From assembly GCA_964606695.1 (NCBI GenBank), contig CAZSHG010000004.1, positions 97,725 to 161,724 of the forward strand: DNA of 64,000 nucleotides, in the 5' to 3' direction. The position numbers and the translations under genes are program-made. This DNA is from an uncultured bacterium. Its GTDB lineage: Bacteria; UBP14; UBA6098. Below, piece by piece: positions 13,706-38,600 of this stretch (its first letter is position 1; each line of letters starts with the position of its first letter). A model generated the notes under the pieces. That model was given only the letters and a program-made list of their open reading frames with translations, made no database searches and was not told the DNA's origin.

Positions 13706-14740
13706 ATGAACTGGAAACTTCTGGAAGAGCTTTGTAATACCCCCGGAGTCCCCGGGCACGAGCGCAAGGTGGCCGAGATTTTCAAGCGCGAAGCCGAGGG
13801 GATCGCGGTGGAATCGTGGTTCGATAACGTCGGCAACTGCATAGTGCACGTCGGCGGGGAAGGCCCGGTAGTGGCGCTGGACGCCCACACCGACGAGGTC
13901 GGTTTCATCGTCTCGCACGTCGATGACGAGGGCTTCATTCGCGTGGTCCCGCTGGGGGGCATCGACCCGCGAGTTTTTTACGCGCAACGCGTCGTCGTCC
14001 ACGGCACCGAGGATTTGCCGGGCGTTGTAGGCGCGGTTCCGCCGCATCTTCTGAACAAAAACGCCGACCGCGACAAGGCAGTGCCCATCGAGGACGCCTT
14101 CATCGACCTGGGCCTCCCCGGGGATAAGGTCAAACAGAAAGTCCGCATAGGGGACGTGGTCACCTTCGACAGCAAGTTCGAGGATTTAGGGGACGTGGTC
14201 ATCGGGAAGGCGTTCGACGACCGGCTGGGCCTGTTCGTCATCCTCGAGGCTATTAAAAAAGCTAAGAAAATCGCCTGCGACCTCTATCTGGTGGCGACGG
14301 TTCAGGAGGAACGCGGCCTCCGGGGCGCGACCTGCGCGGCTTTCACCGTCAACCCGGACATCGCCATCGCACTGGAGGGGACTTTTGCGAACGACCTGCC
14401 GGGAGTGCCTTCGCACAAGCGGCTGGCCACGCAGAACAAGGGCGCAGAACTCCGCATCACCGACCGCGCCGTCATAGCCGACCGCGCGCTGGTGGACTAC
14501 CTGGCGGAAATCGCCGACGGCGGCGGCATCGACCACCAGTTCGTGGTGAAAAACGCCGGCACCACCAACGCCACCGCCATCGAGCTTGCCTCCGGAGGCA
14601 CCCGCGTGGCGGCAATCTCCGCGCCGGTGCGATATATTCACAGCCCCATCGGCATGGTCAACAAGCACGACATCGAATGCCAGATAGACCTCCTGGCGAA
14701 ATACCTGGAAGTCGCCGACAAAACCCCGCCGCGGCGGTAG
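13706..14740 (+). CDS. M42 family (FrvX/CelM-like) aminopeptidase. The gene is distinctly GC-rich compared with its neighbours.
   Basis: 344 aa with M42 architecture (GHERKVAEIF..., ALDAHTDEVGF, GKAFDDRLG, EERGLRGA). Its last about 70 bp and terminator are duplicated downstream. Confidence 0.8.
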   Translation: MNWKLLEELCNTPGVPGHERKVAEIFKREAEGIAVESWFDNVGNCIVHVGGEGPVVALDAHTDEVGFIVSHVDDEGFIRVVPLGGIDPRVFYAQRVVVHGTEDLPGVVGAVPPHLLNKNADRDKAVPIEDAFIDLGLPGDKVKQKVRIGDVVTFDSKFEDLGDVVIGKAFDDRLGLFVILEAIKKAKKIACDLYLVATVQEERGLRGATCAAFTVNPDIAIALEGTFANDLPGVPSHKRLATQNKGAELRITDRAVIADRALVDYLAEIADGGGIDHQFVVKNAGTTNATAIELASGGTRVAAISAPVRYIHSPIGMVNKHDIECQIDLLAKYLEVADKTPPRR

Positions 14741-14798
14741 TTACGCTACCCCTAAAAATTTCCCCCGGCTCCCGCGCTCCGCGTGGGGGCCTTTTTTA
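14668..14798. repeat. Direct repeat copy 1 (131 bp, identical to 15711..15841). It covers the 3' end of the M42 gene, its stop and a rho-independent terminator.
   Basis: Base-by-base reading shows an identical 131-bp string (cgacatcgaatgccagatagacc ... gcgtgggggcctttttta) at both positions. Confidence 0.85.
14762..14797 (+). terminator. Rho-independent terminator of the M42 gene (GC-rich stem CCCCC...GGGGG followed by T6).
   Basis: cccccggctcccgcgctccgcgtgggggcc followed by tttttt. The same structure recurs at 15805..15840. Confidence 0.6.
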
Positions 14799-15030: not shown

Positions 15031-15327
15031 ATGAAAAATAAGGAACAAATAAAATCTCTGATCTCGGCAAACCTGGCGACAATCAAAAAGCGGTTTGGCG
15101 TTTCCTCCATCGGCGTGTTCGGATCTTATGTTCGCGGCGAACAGACCGAAAACAGCGACCTCGATATAATTGTCGTTTTCGAGCCGGGACACAACGACCT
15201 GTTCAATTATTCCCGCCTGAAGACCTATCTTGAGGAATTATTCGGTCTGGAGATCGATCTGGTAATTCAAAACGGCATTAAGCAAGAACTTCGGGATAAC
15301 ATACTCGGAGAGGTTCAATATGCCTGA
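15031..15327 (+). CDS. mnt: Nucleotidyltransferase-domain protein (MNT-type), the antitoxin partner of HepT in type VII toxin-antitoxin systems.
   Basis: 98 aa with the minimal nucleotidyltransferase motif GVFGSYVRGEQTENSDLDIIV (GS...D.D). It overlaps the downstream HEPN gene by 8 nt. Confidence 0.85.
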   Translation: MKNKEQIKSLISANLATIKKRFGVSSIGVFGSYVRGEQTENSDLDIIVVFEPGHNDLFNYSRLKTYLEELFGLEIDLVIQNGIKQELRDNILGEVQYA

Positions 15328-15673
15328 CAGCAGGAGAACCGACCTCCATTTTATTGAAGACATCCTGGTTGCGATTGAGAAGATCGAGCGCTATGTTGGG
15401 GATATGGATTTCGAGAGTTTCGACGCTAACGATATGGCCAAAGACGCGATTATAAGGAATTTTGAGGTGATCGGGGAAGCGGCGCGGAATATTTCGGATG
15501 AGATGCGCGCCAGATATCCTTTTGCCGAGTGGAAAGAGATGACCTCCTTTCGGAATGTTCTTATTCACGGCTATTTCACCCTGAGCACCGAGACGATCTG
15601 GGATACGGTAAAAAAGAACCTCGAACCGCTGAAAGCCCACCTGTTAGAGATTAAAAAGGCCGAAACAAGATGA
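15320..15673 (+). CDS. hepT: HEPN-domain toxin (HepT/DUF86 family) with the R-x4-HxY motif.
   Basis: 117 aa with FRNVLIHGY (Rx4-6HxY HEPN RNase motif). Paired with the MNT gene in the canonical antitoxin-toxin order. Confidence 0.85.
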   Translation: MPDSRRTDLHFIEDILVAIEKIERYVGDMDFESFDANDMAKDAIIRNFEVIGEAARNISDEMRARYPFAEWKEMTSFRNVLIHGYFTLSTETIWDTVKKNLEPLKAHLLEIKKAETR

Positions 15674-15680
15674 CCATATA

Positions 15681-15783
15681 ACCCGGCGACGCCCAATTCG
15701 CCGACGGCGGCGACATCGAATGCCAGATAGACCTCCTGGCGAAATACCTGGAAGTCGCCGACAAAACCCCGCCGCGGCGGTAG
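15681..15783 (+). pseudogene. Degraded duplicate of the 3' end of the M42 peptidase gene, in frame through the TAG at 15781-15783. It probably carries an internal deletion relative to the intact copy.
   Basis: The stretch ttcgccgacggcggcgacatcgaatgccag fuses two sequences that lie about 150 bp apart in the intact M42 gene (atcgccgacggcggcggcatcgac at about 14507 and cacgacatcgaatgccag at about 14665). The identical last 24 codons and stop follow. Confidence 0.5.
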
Positions 15784-15841
15784 TTACGCTACCCCTAAAA
15801 ATTTCCCCCGGCTCCCGCGCTCCGCGTGGGGGCCTTTTTTA
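15711..15841. repeat. Direct repeat copy 2 (131 bp, identical to 14668..14798), including the duplicated terminator.
   Basis: Identical string on direct reading. It is immediately followed by an RBS and ATGCACATCACAA, the start of the next gene. Confidence 0.85.
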
Positions 15842-16886: not shown

Positions 16887-19766
16887 TTGGTTCCAAAAGG
16901 GGTTTTCCAAATGAGCAGTCCACATCAATGGCTTTTAGATTTCCAGGAAACTGGAAATACGACTATTGAAGGGATTGTCTCGGTCGATAACTATTCCCTA
17001 AACGACTTGCCTCCCGATTCTATCCCTATAATGGAAAAAGCCGAGGAATACGGAGCAAAAGCCGTATTCTTTGAAAAGGAGCGGGAAGGCAGACCTCCAA
17101 TTGCACAAGCCTTCATCTTTGTTTGCGACGAACAGGCCGATAAAGAAAGATTTGCTAAACTGCACCAGCGGATGTGGAGCTGGGGCGGCGTTCCTCTGGT
17201 CTATAGAGTTACACCGGGCAAGGTAGAGTTGTTCCGGTGTGCCCATAAGGCGGATTTCGAAAAAAACGGTGAAATCAGTTATAAAGCCTACAAGACTTTA
17301 AAAACTGCTGCAAAGATTGCGAATGATCCGTGGTGGGATTCTGACCGCCTTTATTATGGAAGTATATGGGACGATCCGACAGCTTGCAAAAAACTCCTAT
17401 CAGGTAGCCGGGCGGCGCAGAATACTTTGATTAAAGAGGTAAAAGCCCTCAACACTAAATTAGAGGAAAAAAGCCACTTAGATAGGCCACTTCAGCGCAA
17501 ACTACTTATTTTGTCTTTGATGATCGCATACCTCGAAGAACGGAAGGTCCTTACCGAAGATTATTTCTATAAGTTTAAATCCGGGGCAAACGAATTTTTT
17601 GAAATACTTAAAGATGGCGAAGCGCTGGTAAATCTCCTTGAAAATCTCGAAGAGAGATTCAACGGCCAGATTTTCACTTTATCGCCGGAGATGAAAACGG
17701 AGCTACGGGAAAATCCTGACCTTAGCGAATTCGTGAGGCTTATCGAAGGAATAGAAGACACAAGCGGACAATTAAATCTTTGGAAAAGGTACTCGTTTGC
17801 CGATTTACCAGTCGAATTAATAAGCCACGTTTACCAGCTTTTTGTCGAAGATAAAGACACTGCCGTTTATACCCCGCCTTTCCTCGTGAAATTAATGTTA
17901 GGAGAAGTTCTCACCAAAGAACGGCTGGATAGACTAATAAAAGAGGAAGAGATTATTCTGGACCCGGCTTGCGGCTCTGGCGTCTTTTTAGTCGAAGCTT
18001 ATAAACGCCTTGTGCTACATTGGAGGGCCGAAAAAAATTGGGAAGAGAAACCAGGTGAAGATGACTTAAAAGAACTTTTAACGAAATACATCTATGGCAT
18101 TGATAAAGATAAAGGGGCGACGGAACTAACCGCTTTCAGCCTTTGCCTTGCGCTTTGCGATGCACTTAAACCGGACGAGATTAGTGATAGTAGAAAGATA
18201 TTCCCTCCACTTCTGGGCAAAAACGTTTATGCCATGTGTTTCTTCGAAGCGAGAGAACAGAACAAGATAGAAAAGGACGTCGGGATAATTGTCGGAAATC
18301 CGCCCTTTAAATCTGAATTAATGACTGATGGGGCTAAGAGCGCCTATGAACGATACAACAAGGAATATGCAGATGAAAGAGGCAAATTACCCGACAAGCA
18401 AATAGCCTATCTCTTTCTCCATAAATCGATGGAGATGCTAACTCCGGGCGGTGTTCTCTCGATGCTCCAACAATACAGCTTCTTGTATAACGAACAATCG
18501 ATAAGTTTCCGGAAGAAGTTTTTCGAGAAATGGGATGTTCGAGAAATCCTCGACATGGTTTCTATAACCGGCCTTTTTAAAAAAAGTAAAAAGAACACAA
18601 AGGTTGTTGTTATCGTGGCTGAGGCGAAAGAACCATCTCCAGAGCGAAAGATTCTGCACGCTACTTTCCGACGTAGCGGTAGAACTCATGCCGAACAAGG
18701 TTTCAATATTGATTACTACGATTTACATTGGTTAAAACAGGAAACTGCCGTTGAAAGCCCCTGGATTTGGCGTTCGGATTTGTTTGGAGGTGGTCGAGTT
18801 TTTAATCTAATTGAGAGATTGAAAGAGTACCGGACTCTAGAACAATATGCAAATGAACAGGATTGGGACCATGGGGAAGGCTTCATCAAGGGAGGAAAAG
18901 TAAAAAGAAAACCAGCAAAACATATAACCGGAAGCTTATTAATTAGACCTTATCAATTAGAAGAAGAAGAGATTAACATTGAGACTTTACAAAAGGTAGA
19001 AGAAACGAATTTTAGGTCGGCTTATTCTAAGAAGCGATTTACTGCTCCTATGGTTCTTGTTCGAGAAAACGAAAACCTTGCGGTTAAGTACTTTTCATCT
19101 GGTTATTATACTTATGAAGATAAAATCGTAGGCTTCTGTGTCGGAGATGGGAAAGATGATAATTTATCTTTGTTATTTAATTGGTTTAAAAGTAATCGTG
19201 AAACACTTATAGCCTTGGTTTGTGCAGGAGGAACTACCAACTTTACTCAAAGAGATTCGCAATTAAGCTTATCTGATATACGAAGCTTACCGTCCCCTGA
19301 CATCGACTTGGATTTATCGTTTACCGAGAAAATCGTCGTATCTGATATTGTCGAATATTACCGTGAGTTAATTAGAAAGGGCCAAAATTCGGACGCGATG
19401 ACAAAACCGGGCATAGATGCCCTCCCTGATTTCAATGGAATCTATACCGGTCAGATAAACGCGATCTATAAAGAGAAAAAACTAAAGGCACTCGAACCTC
19501 AAACATGGGCGGGGTTCCTATGCCAGCCCTATGTTTTTGGCGATGGGGAAGTCGATTGGTCGGGTTCGGACGGACTGAAAGACAAATTAGAAAAACTAAT
19601 GAAGGAAAAACGGCCTTATGGCCTGAATATTTATCGAATAGCACGGATTTATGACGGCCCATTCATTTTTCTCTTAAAACCAAACGTTTTGCGTTATTGG
19701 CTGAGGTCTATTGCCCTACGCGATGCCGACGAAACCTTGTCCGATTTATGGAAGCAGGGCTTCTGA
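16887..19766 (+). CDS. Large (959 aa) gamma-class N6-adenine DNA methyltransferase fusion protein. It has an about 330-aa N-terminal domain, a methyltransferase core and an about 340-aa C-terminal, presumably target-recognition, region. The size class matches Type IIG/IIL (Eco57I/MmeI-like) enzymes.
   Basis: Motif X AVYTPPFLV preceded by LISHVYQLF, motif I ILDPACGSGVFLVEAY, motif IV IIVGNPPF. The size and domain order resemble single-chain RM enzymes, but no convincing nuclease motif could be confirmed by eye in the N-terminus. About 41% GC versus about 60% in flanking genes. Confidence 0.8.
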   Translation: MVPKGVFQMSSPHQWLLDFQETGNTTIEGIVSVDNYSLNDLPPDSIPIMEKAEEYGAKAVFFEKEREGRPPIAQAFIFVCDEQADKERFAKLHQRMWSWGGVPLVYRVTPGKVELFRCAHKADFEKNGEISYKAYKTLKTAAKIANDPWWDSDRLYYGSIWDDPTACKKLLSGSRAAQNTLIKEVKALNTKLEEKSHLDRPLQRKLLILSLMIAYLEERKVLTEDYFYKFKSGANEFFEILKDGEALVNLLENLEERFNGQIFTLSPEMKTELRENPDLSEFVRLIEGIEDTSGQLNLWKRYSFADLPVELISHVYQLFVEDKDTAVYTPPFLVKLMLGEVLTKERLDRLIKEEEIILDPACGSGVFLVEAYKRLVLHWRAEKNWEEKPGEDDLKELLTKYIYGIDKDKGATELTAFSLCLALCDALKPDEISDSRKIFPPLLGKNVYAMCFFEAREQNKIEKDVGIIVGNPPFKSELMTDGAKSAYERYNKEYADERGKLPDKQIAYLFLHKSMEMLTPGGVLSMLQQYSFLYNEQSISFRKKFFEKWDVREILDMVSITGLFKKSKKNTKVVVIVAEAKEPSPERKILHATFRRSGRTHAEQGFNIDYYDLHWLKQETAVESPWIWRSDLFGGGRVFNLIERLKEYRTLEQYANEQDWDHGEGFIKGGKVKRKPAKHITGSLLIRPYQLEEEEINIETLQKVEETNFRSAYSKKRFTAPMVLVRENENLAVKYFSSGYYTYEDKIVGFCVGDGKDDNLSLLFNWFKSNRETLIALVCAGGTTNFTQRDSQLSLSDIRSLPSPDIDLDLSFTEKIVVSDIVEYYRELIRKGQNSDAMTKPGIDALPDFNGIYTGQINAIYKEKKLKALEPQTWAGFLCQPYVFGDGEVDWSGSDGLKDKLEKLMKEKRPYGLNIYRIARIYDGPFIFLLKPNVLRYWLRSIALRDADETLSDLWKQGF

Positions 19767-20497
19767 TGTGCAGGAGAATGCTGTCTGATATTGAGCCCAT
19801 TGCACATTCGGGCAGAATAGGGGAAGAGGTCCTTGCACGGAATACAATTCGATTCGAGCTTATCGAATTTATTAGAACGGAATTACCAAAATGGCGCGAT
19901 GACCCGGAAAGGCCTATGGAACATGCCGAGACAGTTTTAACCAGCCAGCTTTGTAGCCATATGAATAGCGTATCAAGAATATCAGAAGCATGGCATAGGA
20001 TTCAATTTGGAACAGAAATCCGAGATGAGAATAATAAAAGAGGGACAATCGACTTTGCACCAAAACCATGTTCTGTGGTTTTGATAATTGAAGGTCGCAA
20101 ATATACTCATTTTGATATGATTTTCCCAATCGAGTGTAAACGCTTACCTACTCCGGCCGGTACAAAAAGAGACGAAAAAGAATATGTAATTGTGGATAGT
20201 GGGTCTACGGGTGGGATCCAACGATTCAAGTTCGGTTTTCACGCATCGGATCATGATTTTGGTGCAATGATAGCCTATGTTCAGGATGCCATTGGTTTTA
20301 GCCGATGGCTGACCAGAATAAATGGATGGGTTCACGACCTCGGGCAAGCTACTGATTCTGTTTGGTGCGACGAAGATCGTTTGGAGCTTTTAGAAGAAGA
20401 TACGGATAACCGTGTTTGTTCATTGAAATCGAATCATCATCGCCAAAACGGCCTCGACGACATCGAGCTCCGACATTTATGGATTGATATGAATTGA
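19767..20497 (+). CDS. Hypothetical protein (about 243 aa) with a possible PD-(D/E)xK-like nuclease motif. The likely start is the ATG at 19767 (MCRRML; TGATG overlap with the methyltransferase stop); the ORF track starts at 19697.
   Basis: GTIDFAPKPCSVVLIIEGRKYTHFDMIFPIECKRLP contains D ... E.K spacing compatible with a restriction-endonuclease-like core (weak). About 43% GC and tightly coupled to the methyltransferase gene. Confidence 0.3.
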
Positions 20498-20696
20498 AGT
20501 AATTCGCGGGGAGCGAAATTCCCCTTGACAAATGACAGTTCGTATTTTAGCTTTTGTGTAGCGGTTTGGTTATGTGGATGGTCTTTGATAATGTTAAGTG
20601 TTCTCGGGGGGTGGAAAATCACCTTTTTTGGGATTTTGGGAGCGAAACTGGGGGTTTTTACGTAAGTGGTTGATTTATAACGTGTAGGAGCGGAAA

Positions 20697-20923
20697 ACAC
20701 GGGCGCTTTTTGATGGACACGCGCACTTTTCGTTAAAACACGAGCATATTCAAGAAAACATGGGCGCTTTCTCCAAATACATTAGCATTTTCTCCAAATA
20801 CACGGGCACTCTACCAAAATACATTGGCACTTTCGGGAAATACACGCGCACATTTCAGAAAACACGAGCACTTTGCTCAAATACATTGGCACTTTCGCCA
20901 AAAACATTAACGCTTTTGTAACC
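20697..20923. repeat. Tandem array of 11 imperfect repeats of 20-21 bp (consensus about ACAYNRGCRCTTTCNNNAAAT), ending 11 bp before the start codon at 20935.
   Basis: Units read directly: acacgggcgctttttgatgg / acacgcgcacttttcgttaaa / acacgagcatattcaagaaa / acatgggcgctttctccaaat / acattagcattttctccaaat / acacgggcactctaccaaaat / acattggcactttcgggaaat / acacgcgcacatttcagaaa / acacgagcactttgctcaaat / acattggcactttcgccaaaa / acattaacgcttttgtaacc. The period equals two helical turns, with an A-tract in each unit. Confidence 0.8.
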
Positions 20924-20934
20924 GGGGAGAGATC

Positions 20935-21936
20935 ATGGCCAAGAAAACAAGAGAACCAGCAAGGTTAGGGCACGCGGACTATTGCAAGTGGTTCGAGCAG
21001 ATGATCGGATTCAAGGAAGATCGTATTGCCGACGGAACCTGGCCGACTCATCTAAACGCAAATTTCCAGGCACTGTTCAATGAATTATGGGACGCCTGGG
21101 ACACTTACGATCGTTTGAAAAATGAGCTTAAAGGGACGACATACAAGGCGTATGACGATGCCTCGAAGCCGGTTTATGATCGGTTAGTCTCGCTTCGAGA
21201 GCTAATTCCGACGCTTTTCGACGGCGACGACGCGGTTCTCGGCGAATTCGGCATGGCTCGAAAAGTGCCTCGCGACAAAGAGGATTTGTTCACGATGGCG
21301 AGCGGGTGCCTGGAGCATTGGGACGACATCACTGACCCGGACGTCCCGCCCGAATATGCGCCCGTTGCGGATATGTTCGCGGAGTTTCAGGATGAATACG
21401 ACACGTTTCAGGCCGCTTACACGGCGTATATCGCCAAAACGCGAGATGTCGAGGAGGCTCAGAATTTATTGCTCGAGAAACGCGAGCTTTGCCATCACAA
21501 GGAGCGTCTAATTTTCCACTGGTTCAAGGGATTACATAAGGACGGCGAGGCTGAATGGTGGACCGCGACGCTCTGGGGCAGGACTGGTGGCGGTTCTGGC
21601 GGCGGGGAGGAGCCGGGGCCGAGTAGCTGGGAGGATGCGCCGACGAATTTCGTCTTGAAAGAGGGTGTTGCGGGGTCGGCGTTGCTTCAGGCGGATGTCC
21701 ATGCCGATGCCGACGGATGCGCGGTGTTCATGGCCGAGACGGAACTGGGCGTGGCGGAACCGCCTATGCGTCCGGGCGAGCCTCTCGAGCCGCTGATTAC
21801 GCCAATCGAACCCGGAAAGTTTTCCTATAATTTGAATATTACGCCGAACCGTCGGGTGTGGTTTTGGATCTGCCATGTCAAGGACGGCGCATGGGGCGCG
21901 ATTGCGGGGCCGGAGTGGATCGAGATCGAGAAATAA
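20935..21936 (+). CDS. Hypothetical cytoplasmic protein (333 aa). Acidic helical N-terminal domain, Gly-rich linker (GRTGGGSGGGEEPGPSS) and C-terminal domain of about 110 aa.
   Basis: Clear RBS (GGGGAGAG) 4 nt upstream of the ATG. No recognisable catalytic motif. Preceded by the 21-bp array and followed by a perfect palindrome. Confidence 0.5.
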   Translation: MAKKTREPARLGHADYCKWFEQMIGFKEDRIADGTWPTHLNANFQALFNELWDAWDTYDRLKNELKGTTYKAYDDASKPVYDRLVSLRELIPTLFDGDDAVLGEFGMARKVPRDKEDLFTMASGCLEHWDDITDPDVPPEYAPVADMFAEFQDEYDTFQAAYTAYIAKTRDVEEAQNLLLEKRELCHHKERLIFHWFKGLHKDGEAEWWTATLWGRTGGGSGGGEEPGPSSWEDAPTNFVLKEGVAGSALLQADVHADADGCAVFMAETELGVAEPPMRPGEPLEPLITPIEPGKFSYNLNITPNRRVWFWICHVKDGAWGAIAGPEWIEIEK

Positions 21937-21960
21937 TATAGAATTTATAATGTAGAATGG

Positions 21961-21990
21961 CGTAGGGGCAATTCATGAATTGCCCCTACG
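21961..21990. repeat. 30-bp perfect palindrome cgtaggggcaattcatgaattgcccctacg, 25 bp after the stop of the orphan gene.
   Basis: Self-complementary on direct reading. It could be a stem-loop terminator, although no T-run follows, or a dimeric protein-binding site. Confidence 0.8.
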
Positions 21991-22067
21991 ATTAGTTTAT
22001 AGGCGGCTCGAGGTGGTCGTCTTTTTTTATCCCTCGTCATTGCAATGTTATATTTTAACATTAAAAG

Positions 22068-22105
22068 ATCGAGCGTCTCGCTCGATGTGCGGCGAGACGC
22101 CGCAC
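22068..22105. repeat. Two adjacent GC-rich hairpins (atcgagcg-tct-cgctcgat and gtgcggcg-aga-cgccgcac).
   Basis: Inverted repeats read directly from the sequence, each with a 3-nt loop. Possible terminator or insulator between the accessory stretch and the TonB-receptor operon. Confidence 0.6.
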
Positions 22106-22254
22106 CTATTAATTTCATAAACCTATTATATTAGAACCCTCCGGCCTTCGGACATCTCGCTTGTTGAGGGAGGCATAAGATTGGATTCGCGATCGGGTCG
22201 GGAATGACAGATGTCAGGAAGTTTTTTAGCTATCCTGAGGAACGCTCCGATTAA

Positions 22255-22590
22255 GTGGCGATGGCAGAAATATTTCCTTGCCCTCAAGTTCTTTGTGCCT
22301 ATATTGAATTCATGAGTCGAAGACGAGAAATATTATCCATTCTGCTTGCGTTCTATCTATTGTTCATAGTCGTTTTTGCGGCTGTTCACACCCACGAAGA
22401 CGGCAGGCACCATTCGGAATGTCAGCTATGCCAGATAGCTGTGTTATCTATCCTTCCGATATCTACATTCATTCTTACGACCAATTTCAGGCGTTGCTAT
22501 TCGACTTTCAATTTGGAAAACCAACTTGTCGAAGACCATCGCCCTACATTTGTCTCCAACCGTTCGCCACCGAAGCCTTTCGATAAATAA
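22255..22590 (+). CDS. Small membrane protein with a His/Cys-rich motif (HTHEDGRHHSECQLCQ), upstream of a TonB-dependent receptor.
   Basis: 111 aa with one predicted TM helix. The metal-ligand-like motif is HxH...HH..CxxC. The arrangement resembles small metal-related accessory proteins often found beside TonB receptors; this is inference. Confidence 0.4.
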   Translation: MAMAEIFPCPQVLCAYIEFMSRRREILSILLAFYLLFIVVFAAVHTHEDGRHHSECQLCQIAVLSILPISTFILTTNFRRCYSTFNLENQLVEDHRPTFVSNRSPPKPFDK

Positions 22591-22623: not shown

Positions 22624-24828
22624 ATGAGAATACGTATGTTATTATGTGTGTTCGCCATTGTTTGTTCTGTCGTCAGCGGCTTCGATGGAAGCGTTTTTGA
22701 CGGGCAGAGCGGCGAACCGTTGGCCGGTGCCAATATACTGGTAATCGGCACAAATATCGGGACTACAACTAATATCGACGGCAATTTTACCCTCGATATC
22801 GAATTGCCGGCGGAGATTTCCGTATCCTTCGTCGGTTACAAAACAAAGGTAGTCGATGTTACGGAAACCGACATAAAAATCGAGGTTCACCCGACCGCCC
22901 TCGGAGGTTCCGAGATAGTTGTAACCTCGACGCGTGGTGCGGCGGAATCGTCGAAATCGCCTCAGCCGACGTCCAGCATAAATTCAAGGCAGATGGCGAT
23001 GCGAAATATTATCACACTCGACGACGCTCTACGGGGCAGTGCCGGTCTGACATTGAACACAACCGGTTCAGGGAGTATTCGCCCCACGATTCGAGGGCTT
23101 TACGATTCCCACGTCCTGACGCTCATGGACGGTATCCCTCTTATGGACCTTCGCCCCGGCGGCGATCATGTCCTGCTTATTGAACCAAGCCAGCTTGGGC
23201 GAATCGAGATAGTTCGAGGCCCGGGATCGGTTCTTTACGGCTCGGACGCTATCGGCGGGGTCGTTAATTTCATCAGCAAGGAATTTGAACCCGTGAATGA
23301 CGGCACGGGGATTTCGGGCGAATTACGCGCGGGATATTCCTCCCTCGGCGACGGCTACAATGCCGACGTGTCGATAGAGAAGCCTCTGGAAAAGGCGAAT
23401 ATCGGCGCGGGGTTCGGTTACAGATCCAACGATGATATATCGGATCCGAACGGCGAGATTCCGAGTAGCGATTACTCCGGCTACCACGCCGATTTATCCG
23501 CAAGCGGCAGTTTCGGATCGAATAGACTATCTTTCGGTGCGCATTATATATCCGCTGACGTCGGAGTGCCGATTAGCCCGAGTATCGAGAGTTCGCATTT
23601 CGAAGGGGAATCGCAGTTGCTAAGCCTCGTCAAATACGAGGGCGTGAATATATCGGCCTTCAAAACCCTACAGGCGAATTTTTCCTGGCAGAAGCACCAT
23701 CGGCATTTCCATAAGATATGGCCTTCGGGCGATCCGAACATGGACGCACAGGTTTGGGTCGATGTCGATGGCTTGACCTTCCAGCTCCTGCCCATGCTTG
23801 ACCTGAAGGGCTTCGTCATTCAGCCGGGAGTAGATGTTACTTATCAATTCGCCTCTTCCGACAGAGTCGTGCAAATCACGGCAAGCGGCGACACGATCCT
23901 CGACAGTCCTGTTATCCCGAATTCGGATAGACTACTCGGCGGATTTTTCGTGCAGGCGAGCAAACCGGTCGGGGCTTTCGACTTCGCGGCGGGGGCAAGA
24001 TACGACGTCGTAACTTCGCATGCCGATGCCCGTGCGCCGGAGGACCCTTTCCAATCAGATGAGTATGATGTTACCGACGCGGATTTTTCCGGAAATCTTT
24101 CATTGCGATACGAACACGAAGATGGGATATTTGCGATAGCTTCTGTGGGAAGGGCTTTTCGCAGTCCGACACTGCTCGAACGATATTTTCGGGGGCCGCA
24201 TACGACCGGCGTCGATCAGGGCAACCCGGAATTGAAATCGGAAACCTCGTTTAATTTCGACCTCGGACTCGGATGGAGCTCGGATATTGTTAATACGAGG
24301 CTCTCGGGTTTCCGTAATCAGGTCGATAATTATATTTTCAAGGAGAATTCGGGCGATACCACCTCGGATGGTGCGGAGATATGGGAATGGAAAAACGAGG
24401 GCAAAGTCGAACTTATCGGTTTCGAAGCTGAGGTAAAAATCTCGCCCTCTGACTGGTTCGGCGCGTCGGGAAATCTGTCCTATGTCGAGGGCAAAGACGA
24501 GAATGACAATTATATGCCGAACATCCCGCCCTTAAACGGCAATCTTGATTTGCGCTTTGAGAAATGGGGTTTCGCTACGGATTTGTTCTGGCTGTTCGCG
24601 GTAAAACAGGATAAGTTAGCGGATAGCGAAACTGCTACAGACGGCTGGCTTACCCATAATATCAGTCTCTCCTACGACCTGTCCAAACACATTCCCATTG
24701 ACGCGGAGATAATTCTAACCGGGAAGAATCTCACGAACGAGGTTTATTACAATCATCTATCCCGAATCAAGGATTACTGGGCCGAAAGCGGAAGAAGTTT
24801 CACGATTTCGTTCGGTATGCAATTCTAA
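22624..24828 (+). CDS. TonB-dependent outer-membrane receptor with an N-terminal carboxypeptidase-regulatory-like domain.
   Basis: Signal peptide. CarboxypepD_reg-like N-terminus (GANILVIGTNIGTTTNIDGNFTL). Plug-region motifs (TLDDALRGSAGL ... IEIVRGPGSVLYGSDAIGGVVNFISK). C-terminal terminal aromatic residue (F). Confidence 0.85.
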   Translation: MRIRMLLCVFAIVCSVVSGFDGSVFDGQSGEPLAGANILVIGTNIGTTTNIDGNFTLDIELPAEISVSFVGYKTKVVDVTETDIKIEVHPTALGGSEIVVTSTRGAAESSKSPQPTSSINSRQMAMRNIITLDDALRGSAGLTLNTTGSGSIRPTIRGLYDSHVLTLMDGIPLMDLRPGGDHVLLIEPSQLGRIEIVRGPGSVLYGSDAIGGVVNFISKEFEPVNDGTGISGELRAGYSSLGDGYNADVSIEKPLEKANIGAGFGYRSNDDISDPNGEIPSSDYSGYHADLSASGSFGSNRLSFGAHYISADVGVPISPSIESSHFEGESQLLSLVKYEGVNISAFKTLQANFSWQKHHRHFHKIWPSGDPNMDAQVWVDVDGLTFQLLPMLDLKGFVIQPGVDVTYQFASSDRVVQITASGDTILDSPVIPNSDRLLGGFFVQASKPVGAFDFAAGARYDVVTSHADARAPEDPFQSDEYDVTDADFSGNLSLRYEHEDGIFAIASVGRAFRSPTLLERYFRGPHTTGVDQGNPELKSETSFNFDLGLGWSSDIVNTRLSGFRNQVDNYIFKENSGDTTSDGAEIWEWKNEGKVELIGFEAEVKISPSDWFGASGNLSYVEGKDENDNYMPNIPPLNGNLDLRFEKWGFATDLFWLFAVKQDKLADSETATDGWLTHNISLSYDLSKHIPIDAEIILTGKNLTNEVYYNHLSRIKDYWAESGRSFTISFGMQF

Positions 24829-29606: not shown

Positions 29607-32600
29607 TTAATCCTCTTCTCGGATATAGAACTCGTTTCTTCTTATCACGGCCCTTTCAGGAACCGTAGCTGAATCGGAAACTTCGGGGTCGTATTCCGGC
29701 CGCCGTCTTCTCGATACGTATGTAACCGATGTATTAATAACGGCACCCGTGCTATTTATGGTTACCATCAGGACATCGGTGCTCGGAGCGGTGGAATCTG
29801 GGGCTGTCAGTGTCCAGCTCGTCTCGCCGGTTGCGCCGGTTACTGCGTTACCGCCGCCGGATGCGCTTGCCGCGGAAAGCGTTACGCTCTCGCCGGCAAT
29901 TGGGTTATCCCATTGATCGACGATACGCGTGCTGACCAGATATGAAGTATTATATGGAACTTCAGACGGAGCCGTTATCGACGAATGACTGGAATTCGGT
30001 AGATCGTGCTTCAGATATACAACATTATTAGCAGTAACACCGCCAATATTAGCCGTAACGTCCACTATACGAGCCGTATCCTGGTTTGCGTAATCATCCC
30101 GGAACAGGTTAGCGCCGGTATAATTACTAATTGCGTAACTGCCGTAGCATTCGTTAATCGAGGTAACCGGCGAGGACGCCGTTCCCCAATCCGCGATAAC
30201 ATTCACGCTGGTTCCGTTAACTACGGGACGGCGGTTAACGTCCCAAATCGAGACCTGGATTTCCGCCGTTCCGGTAGCATCGGCATATACCATATATGGC
30301 GAGATGGAAATACTAATCGAGTCCGCCGGGCCGCTGTTGTAGAAGAAAGTAGTATCGGCACGGGTTCCGGATGTATCTCGTGTTTCGGCGGAGATAGTTA
30401 CGATGCCGCTATCCCTCGGCGACGATGAATACCAGGTAGCGAAAGCGAATCCGGAATCGTCCGTCACCGACGATGTTGTAACCGCGCCCTGTAACGCGGT
30501 GAACCATACTGCCGTTCCGGGCGCAACCGGGTTATCGTAAACATCGGTAACGATTGCCATCACTGAGTTCGCTACGCCGTCGGTATCGAAACCCGGAACA
30601 TTGCAATCGCCTACGGAGACCGAAACATGATACGGTAATCCGCTTCCTATAGTAATCCTCGGCGCACGCGAATCGATAGATCCGCCGGCAGGAATATATG
30701 CCACCGCCTCGATGACCATAGACCCAGATCTGTCGCCGCTTCGTGCCGCGACGCTGGCGCGACCGGCCATCGTATATACCGTATCGCTGACCAATCCGCC
30801 GCCTGGAATAAGTTCCGGATTGATAGAGCCACCGATCGGGTAATCGACGATTCGGAATATTACTGCGCAACTATCGCGAACCGGATTATCGTATTGATCG
30901 AATATTACCGCCTCTATAACCGCCTGGTCTATTTCGCCTACACCGCGGATATAAATAAAGTCTCTACTGACATCGATATCCATCGTATGAGGTGGGCCTG
31001 CTTTAAGGAGAATATTTGCGTGCGCTGTGATTTCATCGACGGTCGCCGTAACACCGGTCATACCTGCTTTCAGGCCGGGCGTGTAGAACGTCGAGAAGTA
31101 ACCGCTGTCATCGACTGCGACTATCGGATCGGCGATACTACCCGTTCCGATGCTATCGACAGTGAGATATACATAAGTTCCCGCCGCGACGGGATTTCCC
31201 ACGCCGTCGGTTACCATACCGCTAACCACACTCGACGTTGTGCTTCCGACTGTAGCCGTATCGGGCACAACGGATAACTCGATATCCGCTGGCGAGCCGG
31301 CTTCGTAGGTAACAGCGACCCTGGACGTTTCTCCCAGGCATGTCGCCTTTATAGTATCCACGCCGCTTGTATCGGCGGCTACCAATAAGGCTTCCGCGAT
31401 ACCTCCCGATAGATAATCGAAAGGAGTAATCAGGCCGAGATCCGCCGTAAATCTCACTATAACTCCGTTTGCAATCGGATTACCATCGGAGTCGAGAACT
31501 AGCGCTCTGACATCCGCAGTTGAAGATCCGTCGGCAGGCAAGCCTCGCGGAGTAATGCTGAGGATTATCGTATCTACCGAATCTGGCACGAAGTCGATAG
31601 GCAGATAACCTGTCGCTCCGCCGCTTGTAGCCATCAGATATGTCGAGCCCACAGAATCGGGAGAGGTAATTCTGAATCTAACTCCGCCGTTGCCGTCCGT
31701 AACCGCTATCGGTGGGCTTACGTATCCGAATTCGAGTGTGAAGTTCACCGCCTGGTCGGGGATGGGATTGCCAAAGGCATCCTCTACCCAGGCGGAATCG
31801 CTGAGCGTATCCGCGCCATCCGCAATTAATTGGACGAAACTCGTATCGAAACGCACAACTGCCGCTTCACCGGGACTGAAGTAAACGGACTGCGTATCCG
31901 AACATACGGTATCGCTTCCCATTGGTATATATGCATAAACATAAGTGCTTCCCGCTATGGTTGGTGCGTAAAGTTCGACGGTGGCCTGTCCGCCTTCTGT
32001 GTCCTGCCTGTTCGGGACTATTAAAGCCTCTACGTTTCCCGGCGGGACGAGTTGCGTGAATCGCACAATCGTGCCGTCGGCTATCTCGAAACCGGTCGAG
32101 TCCGTTACGAAGGCTCTAACGTTCGTGCTCGAAATACCGTCGGCATCCATGTATCTTGTGTCTATCGAAAGGCCGATATCCGCTACGGTAGTCGGCATGA
32201 GTTCTACCTGCGTTATACCTGTTGCCGAACCACAGTTAGCGGTAATTACGGCCATTCCCGCATATCTACCTGCTCTGAATCTTATATCGAAAGCTCCGGT
32301 ATCGTTTGTAGCGGTAACAGGTGTAATCGTGCCGTAATCAGATGGATTGATGCTCAAATTAACTATTTGTCCCGCATTCACCGGATTGCCTTCTTCGTCG
32401 TAAACGACTCCGTAAATACGCGTTGTATCCGTTTCATTGGCAAGTAGCGATGAATCTGCCGGCCACATGCGTATCAGATACGGATCGCCAGGCACGAATT
32501 CTATTGATACTGTGTCGGTGGAATCGCCGCTGGTGGCGACGAGGGTATCCCACCCAACGCTTGTATATGAAGTAACAGTCCCATAAACTACGCCATCGAC

Positions 32601-35600
32601 AGTAGTGGCAAACAACGGCGAAATACTGCCGAGATTCAATTCACTGAATCTCACGGGGGTGCCGTCCGAAACGGGGACACCAACGGTATCCAGGACATAA
32701 CAGGTAACTCCCGCCGTCGATGTTCCGTCGGCTGTCAACCTGGACGGCGACACCGTGAGTAACACGTCGCCGACGTCGGTGGGCGCAAATTCGATAAGTA
32801 TATTCGCGCCCGTGGCACCCGCACTTGCGGTTATGTTACTGAAACCGGCGGACGTTCCGGATAGTAGTCTCGCTCTGGCTCTGCCCAGCGTATCGGTATA
32901 TGCGGTCGATGGAATAGTTCCCAGTGAAGCTGAGAAATTAACTGCAACTCCACTACCGACCGAATTACCGAATATATCCTGAACATAGACCATTATCGAT
33001 GTTGTGTCCGCCCCATTAGCGACGATAACCGTGTCGGAAGCTTCTATATACATAATTTCCGGCGGACCTGGGATAAATCTCGCCATAGTCGTATCTACCG
33101 CGGTCGTTCCCGCACTTGCGACCACGAATACGGAATCGGAAGGCGTAGTGCTGGCGATGAGCGTGCTGGTAGCAACGCCTCCTGCCGTATAACCAATCAC
33201 CGGCGAGACAATACCGTCTGAGGTTGAGAATTTAACGATAGTCCCATCCGAAACGGGGTAGCCCGACGTATCGAATACTACTGCAGTCAAATCCGCGTTA
33301 TCCGAACCGTTCGCCGTAAGTGTAGGAGGATTGACCACAAGATACAGTGTATCGGCTATCAACGGGATGAAATTCAATGTAGCGTAACCCGCGGCACCTC
33401 CGCAGGTAGCGGAAATACTCGCCGTTCCGAAATCGGCGCTGGAAACTACTACAGCAGAGGCTCTTCCAAGAGTGTCCGTTGCAGATGGGGAAGTTATACT
33501 TCCAATCGTTATCCCGAAGTTTACGGACAGACCAGGCGAAACCGTGTTTCCGAAGGCGTCGGTTATTTCTACCGTAACGAGTTGTGTATCCGCACCGTCG
33601 GCATACATATCGCGTATCGGCGGGATAAAGGAGACTATAGCCGGCGGTCCGGGAGTAAACTCAACAACCGCTGTATCCGCAAGCGTAGCGCTAACGCTGG
33701 CTATAACAGTGTCATAACCGGCGATAACACTCGATAATAAGGCCGTGGTTACTTTGCCGCCTTCGGTATAACACGTTGTAGGACTCAATATTCCGCTTCC
33801 AATATTCTGGAAAGTAACAGGCGTATTATCAGACACAGGTCTTGTTCTTCCCAGGGAATCGATATTGAATACCGTTGCCAATACATTACTCGTAGATACG
33901 CCGTCCGCCGTAAGTCGCACGGGATTTGCGACTATGCTAATTAGATCCGCATCGAGTGTTGTAAACTCGTAAGGTTTACTTGCCACCGCTCCCTCACTTC
34001 GTGCTGTGATAAATGCAGGACCGGCTTCCGTGCTCGAAACGAGCGTCCTCGCCGAACCGCTGGTCGAGTCCACCGCAACGGGCGAAATTATTTCTCCCCG
34101 GCTCGTCTCGAATGTAACAGCGGTTCCAATATCCACGGGGTTAGTGTATTCATCGTAAACGTGGACAACGACGGGATAGCCTGAACCGTCGGCAGGCAGA
34201 GTCGTGGTATACATCGTATCGAAGATTATTATAGCAGGTTCGCCCGCCTGATAGGTTACCTCGAAGGTATCCGCGACAGTAGCGCCGACGTTGGCGATTA
34301 TCCTGCCCGTTCCGACGCCGATTGGCGCGGTAAGTTCGACATGCACCGTGCCGGCGTCCGTGAATACTATCCGTGGGGTTATAATCCCTCGAATGAAGCT
34401 ACCTGAAGTGTCCTGTGTGAACGATACCCTCGTGCCGTCGGAGACGTAAAGCCCACTGGAATATACCCATGCCTTAACATTGGCAGTCGATGTTCCGTCG
34501 CCCTGGAGAATTGCGGGATTGATAGTCATTACTATTTCATCCGCGATGAGCGAATCCAGCCGAACATCGACGAATTGAATCGCTTCCTGACAACGGATTG
34601 TTATAAGCGCGTCGCCAACTTCGGTTCCGGCGGTAAGTCTGGTGAATACATAACCAGCGGAATTCGTATATCCTGTCGGTATAACCGAGCCGAGAGTCGT
34701 CTCGAAACTAACCGGAGTGCCCGGTCTAACGGGATTAGAGAACCGGTCGTAAACTGTGCATTCCACTGCGGTAACTGAAGCGCCGTCGGCATACAACACC
34801 GAATCCTGGGCATAAGCGATTATCCTGTTGGCGACACCGGGATCGAGTCTTATGTTGACTGTTCCTGTATCGTCGTCGGCTATGGCTAGAATCTGCACAC
34901 TACTTGCGGCTATCGTATCCGCTCTTATAGTTGTTATCGCTATCCCACTGTCGGTATATGCTTCATTAGGTTCGGCATAAGCGAGCCCCGACGGCACGAC
35001 GAAATCCACGAGAGTCTCATCGGACACGAGGTAACCGCCCGGCGAGTAAACATGCGCGCGAACCGAAGTCGAAGAAACGCCGTCCGCCGTAAGCGAACTA
35101 CTGTCCGAATATACGATTATATTAGATACAGTGGTAGGCCTGAAATTAATCTGGTTGTAACCTACAGCCGATCCGGAATGCGCCATTATAACAGCGTCTC
35201 CAGGATTAAGACCGGACGTAAGGACAACTCTCGCAATACCACTCGTATCCGTAATCGCGCTTGAGGTAATCGTGCCGAGGCTAGTTGTAAATGTAACTTC
35301 TTGACCGGCTCTCAAGTGGTTGCCGTATTGGTCGTTCACGCGGGCATATACATACATGTGATCCCATCCGTCGGCGTTTAGGGTATCTTGTGGAACGTGA
35401 GTTGAATCTCCCCAGATTTCTATTGTCGCCGCGGAACCGGGATGTATAAATACGCGGACGCTGTCCATAATCGAGTCGCCCGGCGTGTAAACTTTGCCTA
35501 CAATCCATGCCTCGCCGTAGCCGACATCGGTACTCGACGTGAAGCTGGTAACGCACGAACCGCCCAGAGTTAGTTTGGGCGAAACGACCGTCCCGCCGGT

Positions 35601-38600
35601 ATCGGCCGGATGCACCTGGAAATAAACCTCGGTGCCGTCCGATGCCGGACTACCCTCCGTATCGTAAACGTCGCACGTGAGGACAGATTGCGACATACCG
35701 TCAGCCGTTACTACTACCGGATCGGCCGTCATCAGGAGATACCCGACGTCGCTTTGCCGTATGGTTATCGGTGTAATCTCGAATGCGTCTCCGCTACTCG
35801 CCCATACACGGGCAGTTCCGGGATCGGTTCCCGCGGTAAGCGTGGTGAAAGCCTCTCCGACGGAATTCGTCATCGTAGAGGTCGGGTAAATTGACCCGAG
35901 ATCGGTGCCGAAAGAAACGTTATGCCCGGACATAAGTGGATTATTGAAATCGTCGTATAACGTAGCCGTGAGGCCGGTATTATCCCGTCCGTTCGCCGCG
36001 ATTACGTCTGTATCCGGGATAAAGGTGATATATGAAAGATCACCCGGAAGAATCTGGACGAGCACCGAATCGCGGACGGAATCCACCGCCGCGCCTACTG
36101 CGCCTTTAATCCAGACCCTGCCTCTGATAGTCTTCACGCGGAACGTTGTATTTGCTTCGCCACTCTCTGTGTATCCGACTTCTGGAATCAAGTTTCCGAA
36201 AGTATCCGCTGGCGTGGGCGGAGATGTAAAACCGTCGGGAATCATCGAGAAATCGACACGGGTTCTATCGCTCATCGGATTTCCGAGAGTATCATATACA
36301 TTGGCTTGAACGGCCGTTTGCGAGAACCCATCCGCCTGTAGAATCGGGTTTTCGACTGTAATCGCGATATCATTCACCGCGGAATCGCTACGGGTGAACT
36401 CGACGAAGGTATCACCGCGCGCGTCGCCCGCCCTTGCGGTTACCCTGGCGACACCCACGTTATAAGTGCTCATCAGGTCGAAAATCACCATGCCGCGCGA
36501 ATTCGTTTCGTCCGAAGTCCTCGAAAGGATGCCCATACTGGCCTCGAAATCGACCTCGGTGCCGGCGGTCATAGCGTTGTAATATCTATCGTAAACATAT
36601 ACACTACAGGTCGCCACCGAGAAACTATCCGCGGGAATAACCGCAGGCGTTGGCCAGATGTCTATAATATGCGGATCGCCCGGGATAAGCTCGCACCACG
36701 TCGTATCGGCGATTGTATCGTTGCCTATATAAACCTCGGCGACGATATCGCATACACCCGCAGTAGTATCCGCACTAAATTCGGTTACGAATTCGCCGCT
36801 GTCGGTATAAACGGTCGCGGGAGAAATAAATCCGTAATTCGTGCCTGCGCTATCCGGTATCGGATAGAGGTGCACAGGTGTCATATACATAATAGGATTA
36901 CCGATAGAATCACGAACCACACCGCTAATCGTAGCGGTTGAATGCCTGTCCGCCGGGATTATATCCGGTTCGATGGACACGAAAACGTCGCCGATACCAA
37001 AGGGCACGAAATCGATATGTCCGATACCAATAGCTCCCTCGCAGGTTGCCGTAATCACGGCGGTTCCCGGAGTTGTGCCGCTTCTGAGCAGAACGGTCAC
37101 TACTCCTGTGCTATCGATCAGAGTATCGGTAACCGTAACGCCCAGCGTATCTATTGTTCCCAGATTCGATTCGAATATGACAATCTTCCCGTTTTTGACA
37201 CGATTGCCCTGGACATCGCGAACTATCGCAGTTACAGAGCATGTGTCCATTCCATCGGCGATAAGACTCAATTTGGATGGGGTTACCTCGATAACATGTG
37301 GCGGACCAGGAACGAAATTAATAAGGGTCGTATCCGCGACAGCCATGCTGTCCGTCGGATCCCAGGGATCTCCGACGTATGCGATTATCGTATCCGGCTC
37401 GAGATTCGATCGAGACGGGCTTCTGAGAGTAACCACACCCTCGCCCATCGAACTGTATCCCACTCCCGGGAATATTGTTCCGCCCGATGAATAGAAATAA
37501 ATTGGTGTTGAATCCGAGACCGCCGTTCCTGAATCATTAAGCGCGTAAGCATGAACGAGACACGTGTTTAGACCGTTGGCCGTCATAGAAAGGCTGTCAG
37601 CGAATACGTCGATTTCTGCAACTTCGAGAGGCCTGAGTTCTATAAGTCCTGCACCGGTGGGCCCGCCCGAAACGTCCGCACTGATAACGGCTATTCCGGT
37701 AGATACTCCGGCCCTGAACGTAACGACGCTCGGAGCATCGTTATCTGTATAAACATAGGGCGGTATAACAGATCCCAGACTGGTGCTTGGACCGACCGTT
37801 ATATCTACTCTCGTCCCAGCCTCCACCAGGTTATCGTATTCATCCATGACTTTGATTGTGCATGCAGAGGCGCTGACGCCATCCGCTGTAAGAATCGGAT
37901 ACTCCGGGATAACCTCGACGTGATGCGGTGGTCCCGGCACGAACCAGACGTTGATTGTATCGCTGAGTGTCGTATCGATTCTTGCGGAAACCCATGCGGT
38001 TCCTGTGCTCGGTTCGGAATATAGAGATACTACGGCGTTTCCATCCGTAGTAGTTTCCAGTGTATCGATAACGCCGAAATCGGCCCCGGTGGAATCCACG
38101 GAATGGAACACGACTATCTGGCCGTCGCTGACGGGCTGGCCGAGTTCGTTGAGAACCCTCGCGGTAATAACCGAATAACTTTCACCGTCGGCGGCTATCT
38201 TGCGCGGACTTGCCCGTAAACTTAGATACGCCGGAGGTGAAATTCCTATATTTACGGTAACCACGGCATGTATTCCCTCGGCGGTAATATCCACTCTGGC
38301 AATTGTAGGAACACTTGTCGCAGTCAACACGGCGGTAACTTCGCCGCGCGAATTTGTATATCCATAAACTGGGCTTATATTTGCACCGGTCGCCGAAAAA
38401 TCTACTCGAACGCCTGAACCGACGGGATTATCATATCTGTCATACAGAATCGCATGGACAATAGTAAAGTCTTCGCCGTTGGCCACAAGAGCTGAATCTT
38501 CTGCCCAGGCATCGATACTGTCAACCGGGCCAGGCACCATATCTATAAATATGCCTCCGCAGGTAGTATCCACGGAATCGTGGGTGCAGGCTGTAAACCA

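Follow-up and report, generated by a model that had tools for sequence, protein, structure and literature searches.

The locus analyzed here lies in a 64,000-nucleotide stretch of contig CAZSHG010000004.1 from an uncultured bacterium (the window; coordinates are those of this stretch) and consists of a tandem-repeat array and the gene immediately downstream (Table 1). We refer to the locus of the window as W, to fetched related loci by labels of the form L0xx, to the 333-aa gene that starts at 20935 as B, and to the gene that starts at 15892 as A. From the comparison of related loci, the array and B look like a conserved cis-element/protein pair that has diversified into orthogonal types. Unit borders in W were set by reading the sequence directly and splitting it at the ACAY core, which gave 11 contiguous starts (20697, 20717, 20738, 20758, 20779, 20800, 20821, 20842, 20862, 20883, and 20904) and, in order, unit lengths of 20/21/20/21/21/21/21/20/21/21/20 bp. 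The mean period is 20.7 bp (207/10). A preliminary description of this DNA had reported 11 head-to-tail units of 20 to 21 bp that end 11 bp before the ATG, with a period equal to two helical turns, and both statements held on direct reading and splitting. The unit consensus, ACAYnnGCRCtTTCnnnAAAt, combines a core of ∼10 to 12 nt with a variable tail and a closing A-run, and the GC content of the array is 0.42 versus 0.50 for the window.

The array is real and nonrandom. At default stringency, Tandem Repeats Finder (TRF) reported only its best-kept middle (20758 to 20907, 7.2 copies, 69% matches, score 104), which indicates that the units are degenerate; units inside one array are 60 to 80% alike. 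Because the units differ from one another by 20 to 35%, collapse or expansion of the array during assembly is unlikely. The array at the orthologous locus L014, taken from an independent assembly, has the same unit order and the same positions of 20-bp units, and the copy number, which the preliminary description had proposed comparing between related genomes, differs by one 42-bp (two-unit) indel (11 units in W and 13 in L014). With up to two mismatches, the core motif matched all 11 units and had 21 further matches in the 64 kb (14.1 ± 3.5 in shuffled sequence). These extra matches are near chance level; thus, the W unit is not dispersed in the window. It was also not found in IMG/VR viral contigs, and among 45 fetched loci it occurred only at L014, so that the common dispersed minisatellite considered in the preliminary description did not appear in any of these searches. 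In the homologues, M1 is invariant and the N terminus, MxxK(T/S)RxP, is conserved, which supports the start codon assigned to B; residue 7, between the invariant R6 and P8, is highly variable.

Table 1. Features of the locus and its surroundings (positions in the window)
Feature	Start	End	Strand	Description
Accessory island, ∼10.1 kb	14799	24910		MNT/HEPN pair, A, restriction-modification (RM) enzyme, leader-array-B, TonB-dependent receptor
Gene A	15892	16788	+	298 aa; PD-(D/E)xK-like motif RPDF...FEAKG; no Pfam or PDB match
Variable cargo	16887	20497	+	Type IIG RM enzyme (16887-19766) and unknown 266-aa open reading frame (ORF) (19697-20497); GC 0.42
Leader module	20517	20655	+	A-rich stretch, sigma-70-like promoter, short inferred transcript, hairpin and T-run
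Pre-array segment	20656	20696	+	41 bp (TTTTTACGTAAGTGGTTGATTTATAACGTGTAGGAGCGGAAA); travels with array and gene; 85% identical to L014
Repeat array	20697	20923	+	11 direct 20/21-bp units; core ACAYnnGCRCtTT, variable 3-4 nt, A-run
Ribosome-binding region	20924	20934	+	GGGGAGAGATC; between last unit and ATG at 20935; read from sequence
Gene B	20935	21936	+	333 aa, pI 4.67, net charge -26; ends in FN3-like domain
Palindrome	21961	21990	+	Perfect, 15+15 nt, downstream of B; by terminator scan a 13-pair stem with 4-nt loop, terminator-like

The preliminary description had treated the downstream gene as an orphan, which was not borne out. The W protein has 8 close relatives, a profile search retrieved a B family of 88 representatives at 50% identity clustering, and the architecture is common to the family. 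Of ∼26 distinct family loci fetched, ∼24 have an upstream array with a period of 20.5 to 21 bp. TRF found arrays in 24/29 locus entries, and degenerate 21-bp phasing was recognized by eye in four more (L001, L018, L027, and L035). Family arrays comprise 5.6 to 17.5 units by TRF (∼20 by eye in L035), often with a super-period of 41/42 or 84 bp, and A-runs or T-runs recur in most unit types. The distance from array end to B start is 16 to 174 bp by the conservative span of TRF and 11 bp in W when units are counted by hand. The 605 kb of window plus loci contain 38 arrays that reach at least 80 bp and have a period divisible by 21; of these, 32 sit 0 to 320 bp upstream of a B start. The exceptions include duplicated B-linked arrays and the array of L044, which stands before a DUF5343-HEPN-B-like operon. 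We found no description of the array/B architecture or of the B family in the searchable literature.

Period and position are kept across B proteins that are only 20 to 30% identical, while unit sequences have turned over entirely. The types recognized are ACAYnnGCRC (W and L014), AGGTCGAAC (L012/L013), GCRYTGTAGCA (L005/L009/L041), AAAAGCCTKC (L001/L031), AAAGnCGTGA (L027/L028), GCTTTTAGA (L043), AAGGGTAWTT (L020/L033/L035), and CCGTCTGGAGGCC (L026/L042). Single metagenome-assembled genomes hold two or three paralogous loci, and the units differ between these paralogues. Wherever two loci have N-domains less than 45% identical, their arrays have no more 8-mers in common than background.

Several individual loci depart from the common arrangement. 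In L044 (12895-13113 to 15715), an 11-unit 21-bp array is followed by DUF5343 and HEPN_Swt1 genes and then by a divergent B-like protein (417 aa, two FN3 domains). In L040 (4964-5670), the B homologue, a probable pseudogene, has an in-frame stop at codon 13, and an array of ∼8 units is still present upstream. L012 contains recent, near-identical 41-bp duplications (92% matches). In L032, a 310-bp, 97%-identical duplication of leader-array-RBS-ATGCC (1330-1690 and 5420-5785; RBS, ribosome-binding site) brackets a 4-gene insertion encoding envelope or secreted proteins, placed right after the second codon of B; the pattern is that of an insertion with a long direct duplication. The second L032 array was considered as a second target operon of a regulon, but it is this 310-bp duplication and hence provides no evidence for regulation in trans.

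Comparison of W with L014 indicates which parts of the unit are constrained. The two arrays are positionally orthologous and 81% identical, and the N-terminal 210 residues of the B proteins are 86% identical. Unit positions 1 to 3, 7 to 8, 11, and 13 are 91 to 100% identical between the two loci, while positions 5 and 14 to 16 are 36 to 64% identical. Neutral proxies give 58% (4-fold degenerate codon sites of B) and 56% (upstream leader). On this comparison, the core unit positions are under sequence-specific purifying selection. Invariant positions beside free ones are the signature of sequence-specific recognition, which drift or homogenization alone would not yield. Of the options listed in the preliminary description, a phased operator array with cooperative binding best fits this position-specific selection; the binding itself is putative.

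Recombinant loci reveal what is inherited together. W and L043 have ∼90% identical leaders, different arrays, and B N-domains that are 34% identical; L014 and L042 have another leader type in common and differ in array and N-domain. Among W, L001, and L005, the B C-domains are 78 to 81% identical, the N-domains are 30 to 35% identical, and the arrays are different. Thus, the pre-array segment, the array, and the B N-domain form one co-inherited unit; exchange of the leader and of the C-terminal FN3 domain is independent of that unit. The CGTAAGTnGTTGA..ATAT motif of the pre-array segment is also present in L012 and L013; the segment is missing in L043, although the leader is common to W and L043.

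The leader of W contains a candidate promoter (-35 TTGACA at 20525 to 20530, 17-nt spacer, -10 TAGCTT at 20548 to 20553) and a hairpin at 20606 to 20627 (loop GAAAAT) with a T-run to 20629; a transcript from the putative start to the T-run would be ∼75 to 80 nt long. The promoter was found by eye and with a relaxed pattern. Promoter and terminator scans of the window flagged neither the leader promoter nor the leader hairpin, which suggests that both are weak or inferred. In many family loci, TTGAC-N17-TAnnnT boxes lie 300 to 630 bp upstream of B. Between W (20517-20655) and L043 (15140-15270), the shared leader shows compensatory changes in the hairpin (GGGGTG/CACCTT versus GTGGGG/CCCCAC), while the flanking proteins are only 34 to 64% identical; this module, which recombines on its own, may encode a small RNA or serve as an attenuator. 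A small conserved leader ORF was rejected, as the reading frames of W and L014 do not agree and their identity does not exceed the neutral level, and leader-array complementarity was rejected because no inverted repeat links leader to array.

The leader promoter, 173 bp upstream of the W array, is the sole recognizable candidate; neither the promoter scan tool nor our own pattern scan found a sigma-70-like promoter inside or after the array. Transcription must therefore cross the array. The terminator scan found no plus-strand terminator in the mere 11 bp (the RBS) that separate the array from the ATG. Should there be no promoter but the distal one, the array would be transcribed as RNA as well. 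A structured 5′ leader, another option raised in the preliminary description, is not supported: covariance models of Rfam (Rfam 15) gave no match at E values up to 1 across positions 19500 to 22500, and folding energy is unexceptional for both the array (z = -1.66) and the leader (z = +0.42). RNA structure was rejected as the basis of the array on these grounds. Small hairpins are possible in units 9 and 10 and not in most units.

Intrinsic curvature had also been proposed. With wedge-model parameters after Bolshoy/Trifonov, which give indicative values only, the ratio of end-to-end distance to contour length was 0.68 for the W array; shuffled sequence gave 0.90 ± 0.06, and windows of genomic DNA gave 0.93. 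Strong curvature is thus predicted for W, and curvature is likewise predicted for L014, L001, and L020; it is not universal among homologous arrays, as the model predicts none for L012, L019, and L035. For this reason, curvature is probably a by-product of phasing and not the selected property.

Other identities for the array were considered and set aside. As the preliminary description had stated, the array is not a CRISPR; its units are contiguous without spacers and cas genes are absent nearby. A coding heptad repeat (21 bp = 7 codons) was considered because of repeat-spanning ORFs on either strand in several loci, but 20-bp units and 41-bp doublets break the frame. A slipped-strand contingency locus does not fit units of 20/21 bp that are only 60 to 80% alike and lie outside an ORF, with no flanking promoter hexamers. 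The TGGCAC of the units lacks a GC dinucleotide at the spacing required for a sigma-54 promoter, as read from the sequence. An array of sigma-70 promoters was suggested by TTGAC(A) in alternate units of several arrays, and the L018 array holds a perfect TTGACA-17-TATAAT, but W and ten other arrays have none; it is no general property. A sigma-70 scan of the arrays gave 17 plus-strand and 16 minus-strand matches against ∼6 expected per strand, an excess inflated by repetition.

The predicted structure of B consists of a long helical bundle (residues 1 to 205), a Gly-rich linker, and a C-terminal FN3-like beta-sandwich (∼237 to 330). The W protein matched no family in Pfam, NCBIfam, PHROG, or PADLOC, and no known DNA- or RNA-binding, Rep, ParA, ParM, ParR, helicase, primase, or ToxN/AbiQ fold was detected. 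The monomer model contains no ribbon-helix-helix (RHH) or helix-turn-helix (HTH); a dimer, but not a monomer, could build a ribbon from the conserved basic N-terminal arm MxxK(T/S)RxP. No homologues were found in 72,556 plasmid records, 50,697 phage records, or IMG/VR. The C-terminal domain (21643-21933 in the window) has been exchanged between lineages independently of the N-domain, and some members have longer or double C-domains. Some C-terminal domains of the family resemble, though weakly, the Ig-like ends that major tail proteins of phages carry. A phage origin of B was rejected: a few members match PHROG "major tail protein" families, but they do so via the linker/FN3 region only, and the viral and phage collections contain no homologues.

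The W locus lies on a 170-kb contig inside conserved chromosomal synteny; by housekeeping genes, the closest named relatives belong to candidate division Zixibacteria (68% identity). The preliminary description had placed the array in a putatively mobile accessory region, and comparison with relatives agrees. Two relatives (L046 and L047) lack the segment delimited in Table 1 yet keep the flanking synteny, with an M42 peptidase gene followed directly by genes for a nitroreductase, a cyclophilin, a TPR protein, and a giant adhesin-like protein; leader-array-B thus sits in an accessory island. The island also includes the unknown 266-aa ORF, and its TonB-dependent receptor is encoded at 22624 to 24828. 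A perfect 131-bp direct repeat (14668-14798 and 15711-15841), made of the last 73 bp of the M42 peptidase gene and its terminator, flanks the MNT/HEPN toxin-antitoxin cassette at 15031 to 15673, which looks like a recent insertion with a long target duplication. Elsewhere in the window, a giant 5268-aa ORF occupies 29607 to 45413 on the minus strand; its L047 counterpart has Invasin_D3/Big_1 repeats.

The family of gene A comprises at least 107 clusters. In nine loci, A lies in the same orientation ∼3 to 6 kb upstream of B, and the cargo between the two is always of defense type: type IIG RM; NotI-like RM; Dcm and Vsr with a HATPase or UvrD/PDDEXK protein; Dam, Mrr, and ParE; RelE/MqsA; or GmrSD/NspV. 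A recurs as the left border of defense cargo directly 3′ of unrelated housekeeping genes (catalase, rubrerythrin, transaldolase, cas7, or M42 peptidase). RelE-type toxin-antitoxin pairs are inserted at the 3′ end of A in L009 (1306-1554/2146-2391) and L017 (4387-4635/5312-5431), where the last ∼80 codons of A are duplicated (copies 88 to 90% identical). More distant B loci lack A and defense cargo and lie among ordinary genes for type IX secretion system (T9SS) substrates; T9SS sorting domains are common in the fetched loci. The array/B pair is the constant element, and its association with the hotspot is frequent and not obligatory. Protein A was considered as the binder of the array and rejected: only 9 loci have it, and it shows no co-variation with array type. 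When all loci were compared against one another, B was the only gene found to co-occur with the arrays. This context resembles core defense hotspots between conserved marker genes, e.g., the Pseudomonas aeruginosa cDHS (PMC10250203) and the P2/P4 hotspots (bioRxiv 10.1101/2021.01.21.427644), in that variable RM, toxin-antitoxin, and other defense cargo lies between A (left) and leader-array-B (right) in nine loci. It differs in that the whole A...B unit is itself accessory, and no tandem-repeat boundary element is known to us from those hotspot descriptions; the comparison concerns the context and not the array.

The layout of the array invites comparison with replicon elements. Plasmid and phage iterons (P1 incC/RepA, pSC101, R6K, and F ori2/RepE) comprise at least 5 to 10 imperfect direct repeats of ∼17 to 22 bp at a spacing of ∼two turns upstream of one gene; their unit sequences are element specific and co-evolve with the element, and in plasmids the array doubles as an autoregulatory operator. 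As iterons are typically found directly 5′ of rep genes, the preliminary remark that the position is unusual for iterons was mistaken. The parC arrays of type II partition systems (ten 11-bp repeats in R1; four 20-bp repeats in pSK41, bound cooperatively by ParR) assemble with the bound protein into a nucleoprotein superhelix, which acts as a repressor of the promoter as well. The array of W could be an iteron origin or partition centromere of the island, or its remnant, with B as initiator or centromere-binding protein. It shares with iterons direct repeats two helical turns apart, a position just upstream of one gene, and element-specific units, and with parC direct repeats that adjoin one another (each of 20 bp in pSK41) and directly precede a gene or operon; this is the classical layout of both, and the locus is in an inserted island. 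However, the adjacent protein is an acidic helical bundle with FN3 and not a winged-helix Rep of the Rep_3/RepA/pi/TrfA type, and no RHH/HTH ParR/ParB, helicase, or primase fold was detected in its monomer model. No ParA, ParM, or TubZ motor gene is adjacent: B is followed by the terminator-like palindrome and the TonB-dependent receptor gene and preceded by the RM enzyme and the unknown ORF. W lacks an A+T-rich unwinding element, and DnaA boxes (TTATCCACA, up to one mismatch) are at chance level (12 matches in the window versus 11.9 expected) and not clustered, the nearest being ∼500 bp away at 20191. Unlike iterons, B loci are chromosomal, with several paralogous copies per chromosome among ordinary genes, and are absent from plasmid and phage collections; unlike parC, the family arrays are longer (to ∼20 units) and lie downstream of the sole recognizable promoter. 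The suggestion of a replication or partition-site remnant thus fails, and we consider such a function very unlikely. Slightly less probable still is a neutral minisatellite that is kept by unequal recombination and hitchhikes beside the B family. Shifts in copy number by 42-bp steps between close relatives, the duplications in L012, and the array retained upstream of the probable pseudogene in L040 would be expected of one, but the constancy of period and position despite full turnover of unit sequence, and core positions conserved at 91 to 100% versus ∼57% at neutral sites, would not; concerted evolution alone is not expected to let invariant and free positions persist side by side.

Two further explanations take the array to be functional. 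In one, it acts as RNA: transcribed within a 5′ untranslated region of ∼400 nt, the 21-nt motifs would be binding sites through which B or another factor controls translation or stability of its own mRNA, or a type III-like antitoxin or sponge that neutralizes B. The sigma-70-like promoter and A-rich stretch upstream of the array in many loci, with no promoter inside or after the W array, suit this explanation, and in W and L014 the array adjoins the RBS (11 bp), so that RNA binding at the last unit could occlude it. Orthogonal repeat/protein pairs in one genome are what a cognate RNA-protein pair predicts. The succession of promoter, tandem direct repeats, and single protein gene and the defense-island setting also resemble type III toxin-antitoxin loci (PMC3401426), as do the orthogonal pairs, which are putative here. 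In those systems (ToxIN, CptIN, and TenpIN), however, 2 to 5.5 nearly identical repeats of 34 to 45 nt are followed by a terminator, whose palindrome is a criterion for membership, and then by the gene for a ∼20-kDa endoribonuclease of the ToxN fold (PMC3401426). B-family arrays have 6 to 20 copies of 21-nt units that are 60 to 80% alike and not near identical; no terminator separates array and B, and a hairpin with a U-run precedes the repeats instead; and B is acidic, is no ToxN/AbiQ-like RNase, and has a fold unrelated to ToxN/AbiQ/CptN/TenpN. The replicon, CRISPR, and classical type III toxin-antitoxin classes all fail as assignments for this locus. The unexceptional folding energy and the empty Rfam search also speak against a role as RNA, the gap to the RBS is not conserved, and a period of 20.5 to 21 built from mixed 20- and 21-nt units is natural for duplex DNA and unexplained for RNA. 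We regard the RNA-level explanation as unlikely. The same word applies to the proposal that the array is read by a factor encoded elsewhere or serves as structural DNA (curved or anisotropically flexible DNA, an insulator or boundary at the edge of a defense-gene hotspot, or a nucleation site for nucleoid proteins), with B a mere regulated or shielded neighbor. Strong curvature predicted for W, L014, L001, and L020, the recurrent A-runs or T-runs, the lack of a nucleic acid-binding signature in B, and the position of leader-array-B at the right edge and A at the left edge of variable defense cargo in nine loci are consistent with it. Yet no curvature is predicted for L012, L019, and L035, arrays also occur in distant family loci that lack defense cargo, and a conserved GC-containing core beside neutral positions points to reading of sequence and not of shape alone. 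Moreover, with three core types in one genome, three different trans factors would be needed, and the arrays have no co-occurring gene other than B.

We favor, at a probability of roughly 35%, the reading that the array is a set of phased, iteron-like sites for a cognate factor, probably the adjacent protein B, that throttles its own expression. The mix of 20- and 21-bp units, with means of 20.5 to 20.7 bp, matches the helical repeat of duplex DNA, and this match and the predicted curvature of several arrays favor a role as duplex DNA. A period of 20.5 to 21 bp would place all of the ∼10- to 12-bp cores on one face of B-DNA, so that the cognate factor could bind cooperatively along ∼230 bp of intrinsically curved DNA. 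The bound stretch would lie between the sole recognizable promoter (20525-20553) and the RBS. B is favored as the cognate factor because it is the only candidate that co-varies with the array; it would be the most parsimonious choice, making contact via its N-terminal helical domain, the MxxK(T/S)RxP arm, or both. Binding of B would then throttle its own transcription by roadblock or occlusion, i.e., autoregulation. We infer a role of the sites at the level of DNA and not of RNA, B as the binding protein, and autoregulation as the outcome.

Several observations weigh against this reading. Its main weakness is that B is acidic and, as modeled, has no recognizable DNA-binding fold. The net charge of -26 for the whole protein is accompanied by an N-domain charge of -15 in W, which is the same as the median of 28 family members, and only six basic positions of the N-domain are conserved (K4, R6, R88, R183, R191, and K198). 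The distance from array to start codon ranges between 11 and ∼170 bp, and the divergent B-like gene of L044 is separated from its array by two other genes. Finally, the co-inheritance of array and N-domain may reflect adjacency alone.

The array belongs to a known general kind, the phased direct-repeat site array, with a protein partner that is probably new. A farther-reaching and doubtful proposal, though one with some chance of being correct, is that the B N-domain is a previously unrecognized sequence-specific nucleic acid module whose specificity turns over rapidly together with its own array, such that each genome would have several mutually orthogonal pairs that mark, and perhaps control or insulate, the edges of exchangeable defense cassettes in Zixibacteria-like bacteria. 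A variant of this proposal would make the locus a new repeat-RNA/protein (type III-like) abortive-infection module. If array and B are a cognate pair, the N-domain would be a new sequence-specific recognition family, unlike HTH, RHH, winged-helix, or ToxN folds, and the family would offer dozens of natural orthogonal site/protein variants, a resource for studying the evolution of specificity and for orthogonal regulators. Even on the modest reading of an unusually long, family-wide phased operator array, these loci would make a clean natural model of how sites at two-turn phasing are bound cooperatively. The landmark of promoter-leader, 21-bp array, and B, often with A 3 to 6 kb upstream, brackets defense cargo in an uncultivated phylum and may be used to mine new defense systems there.

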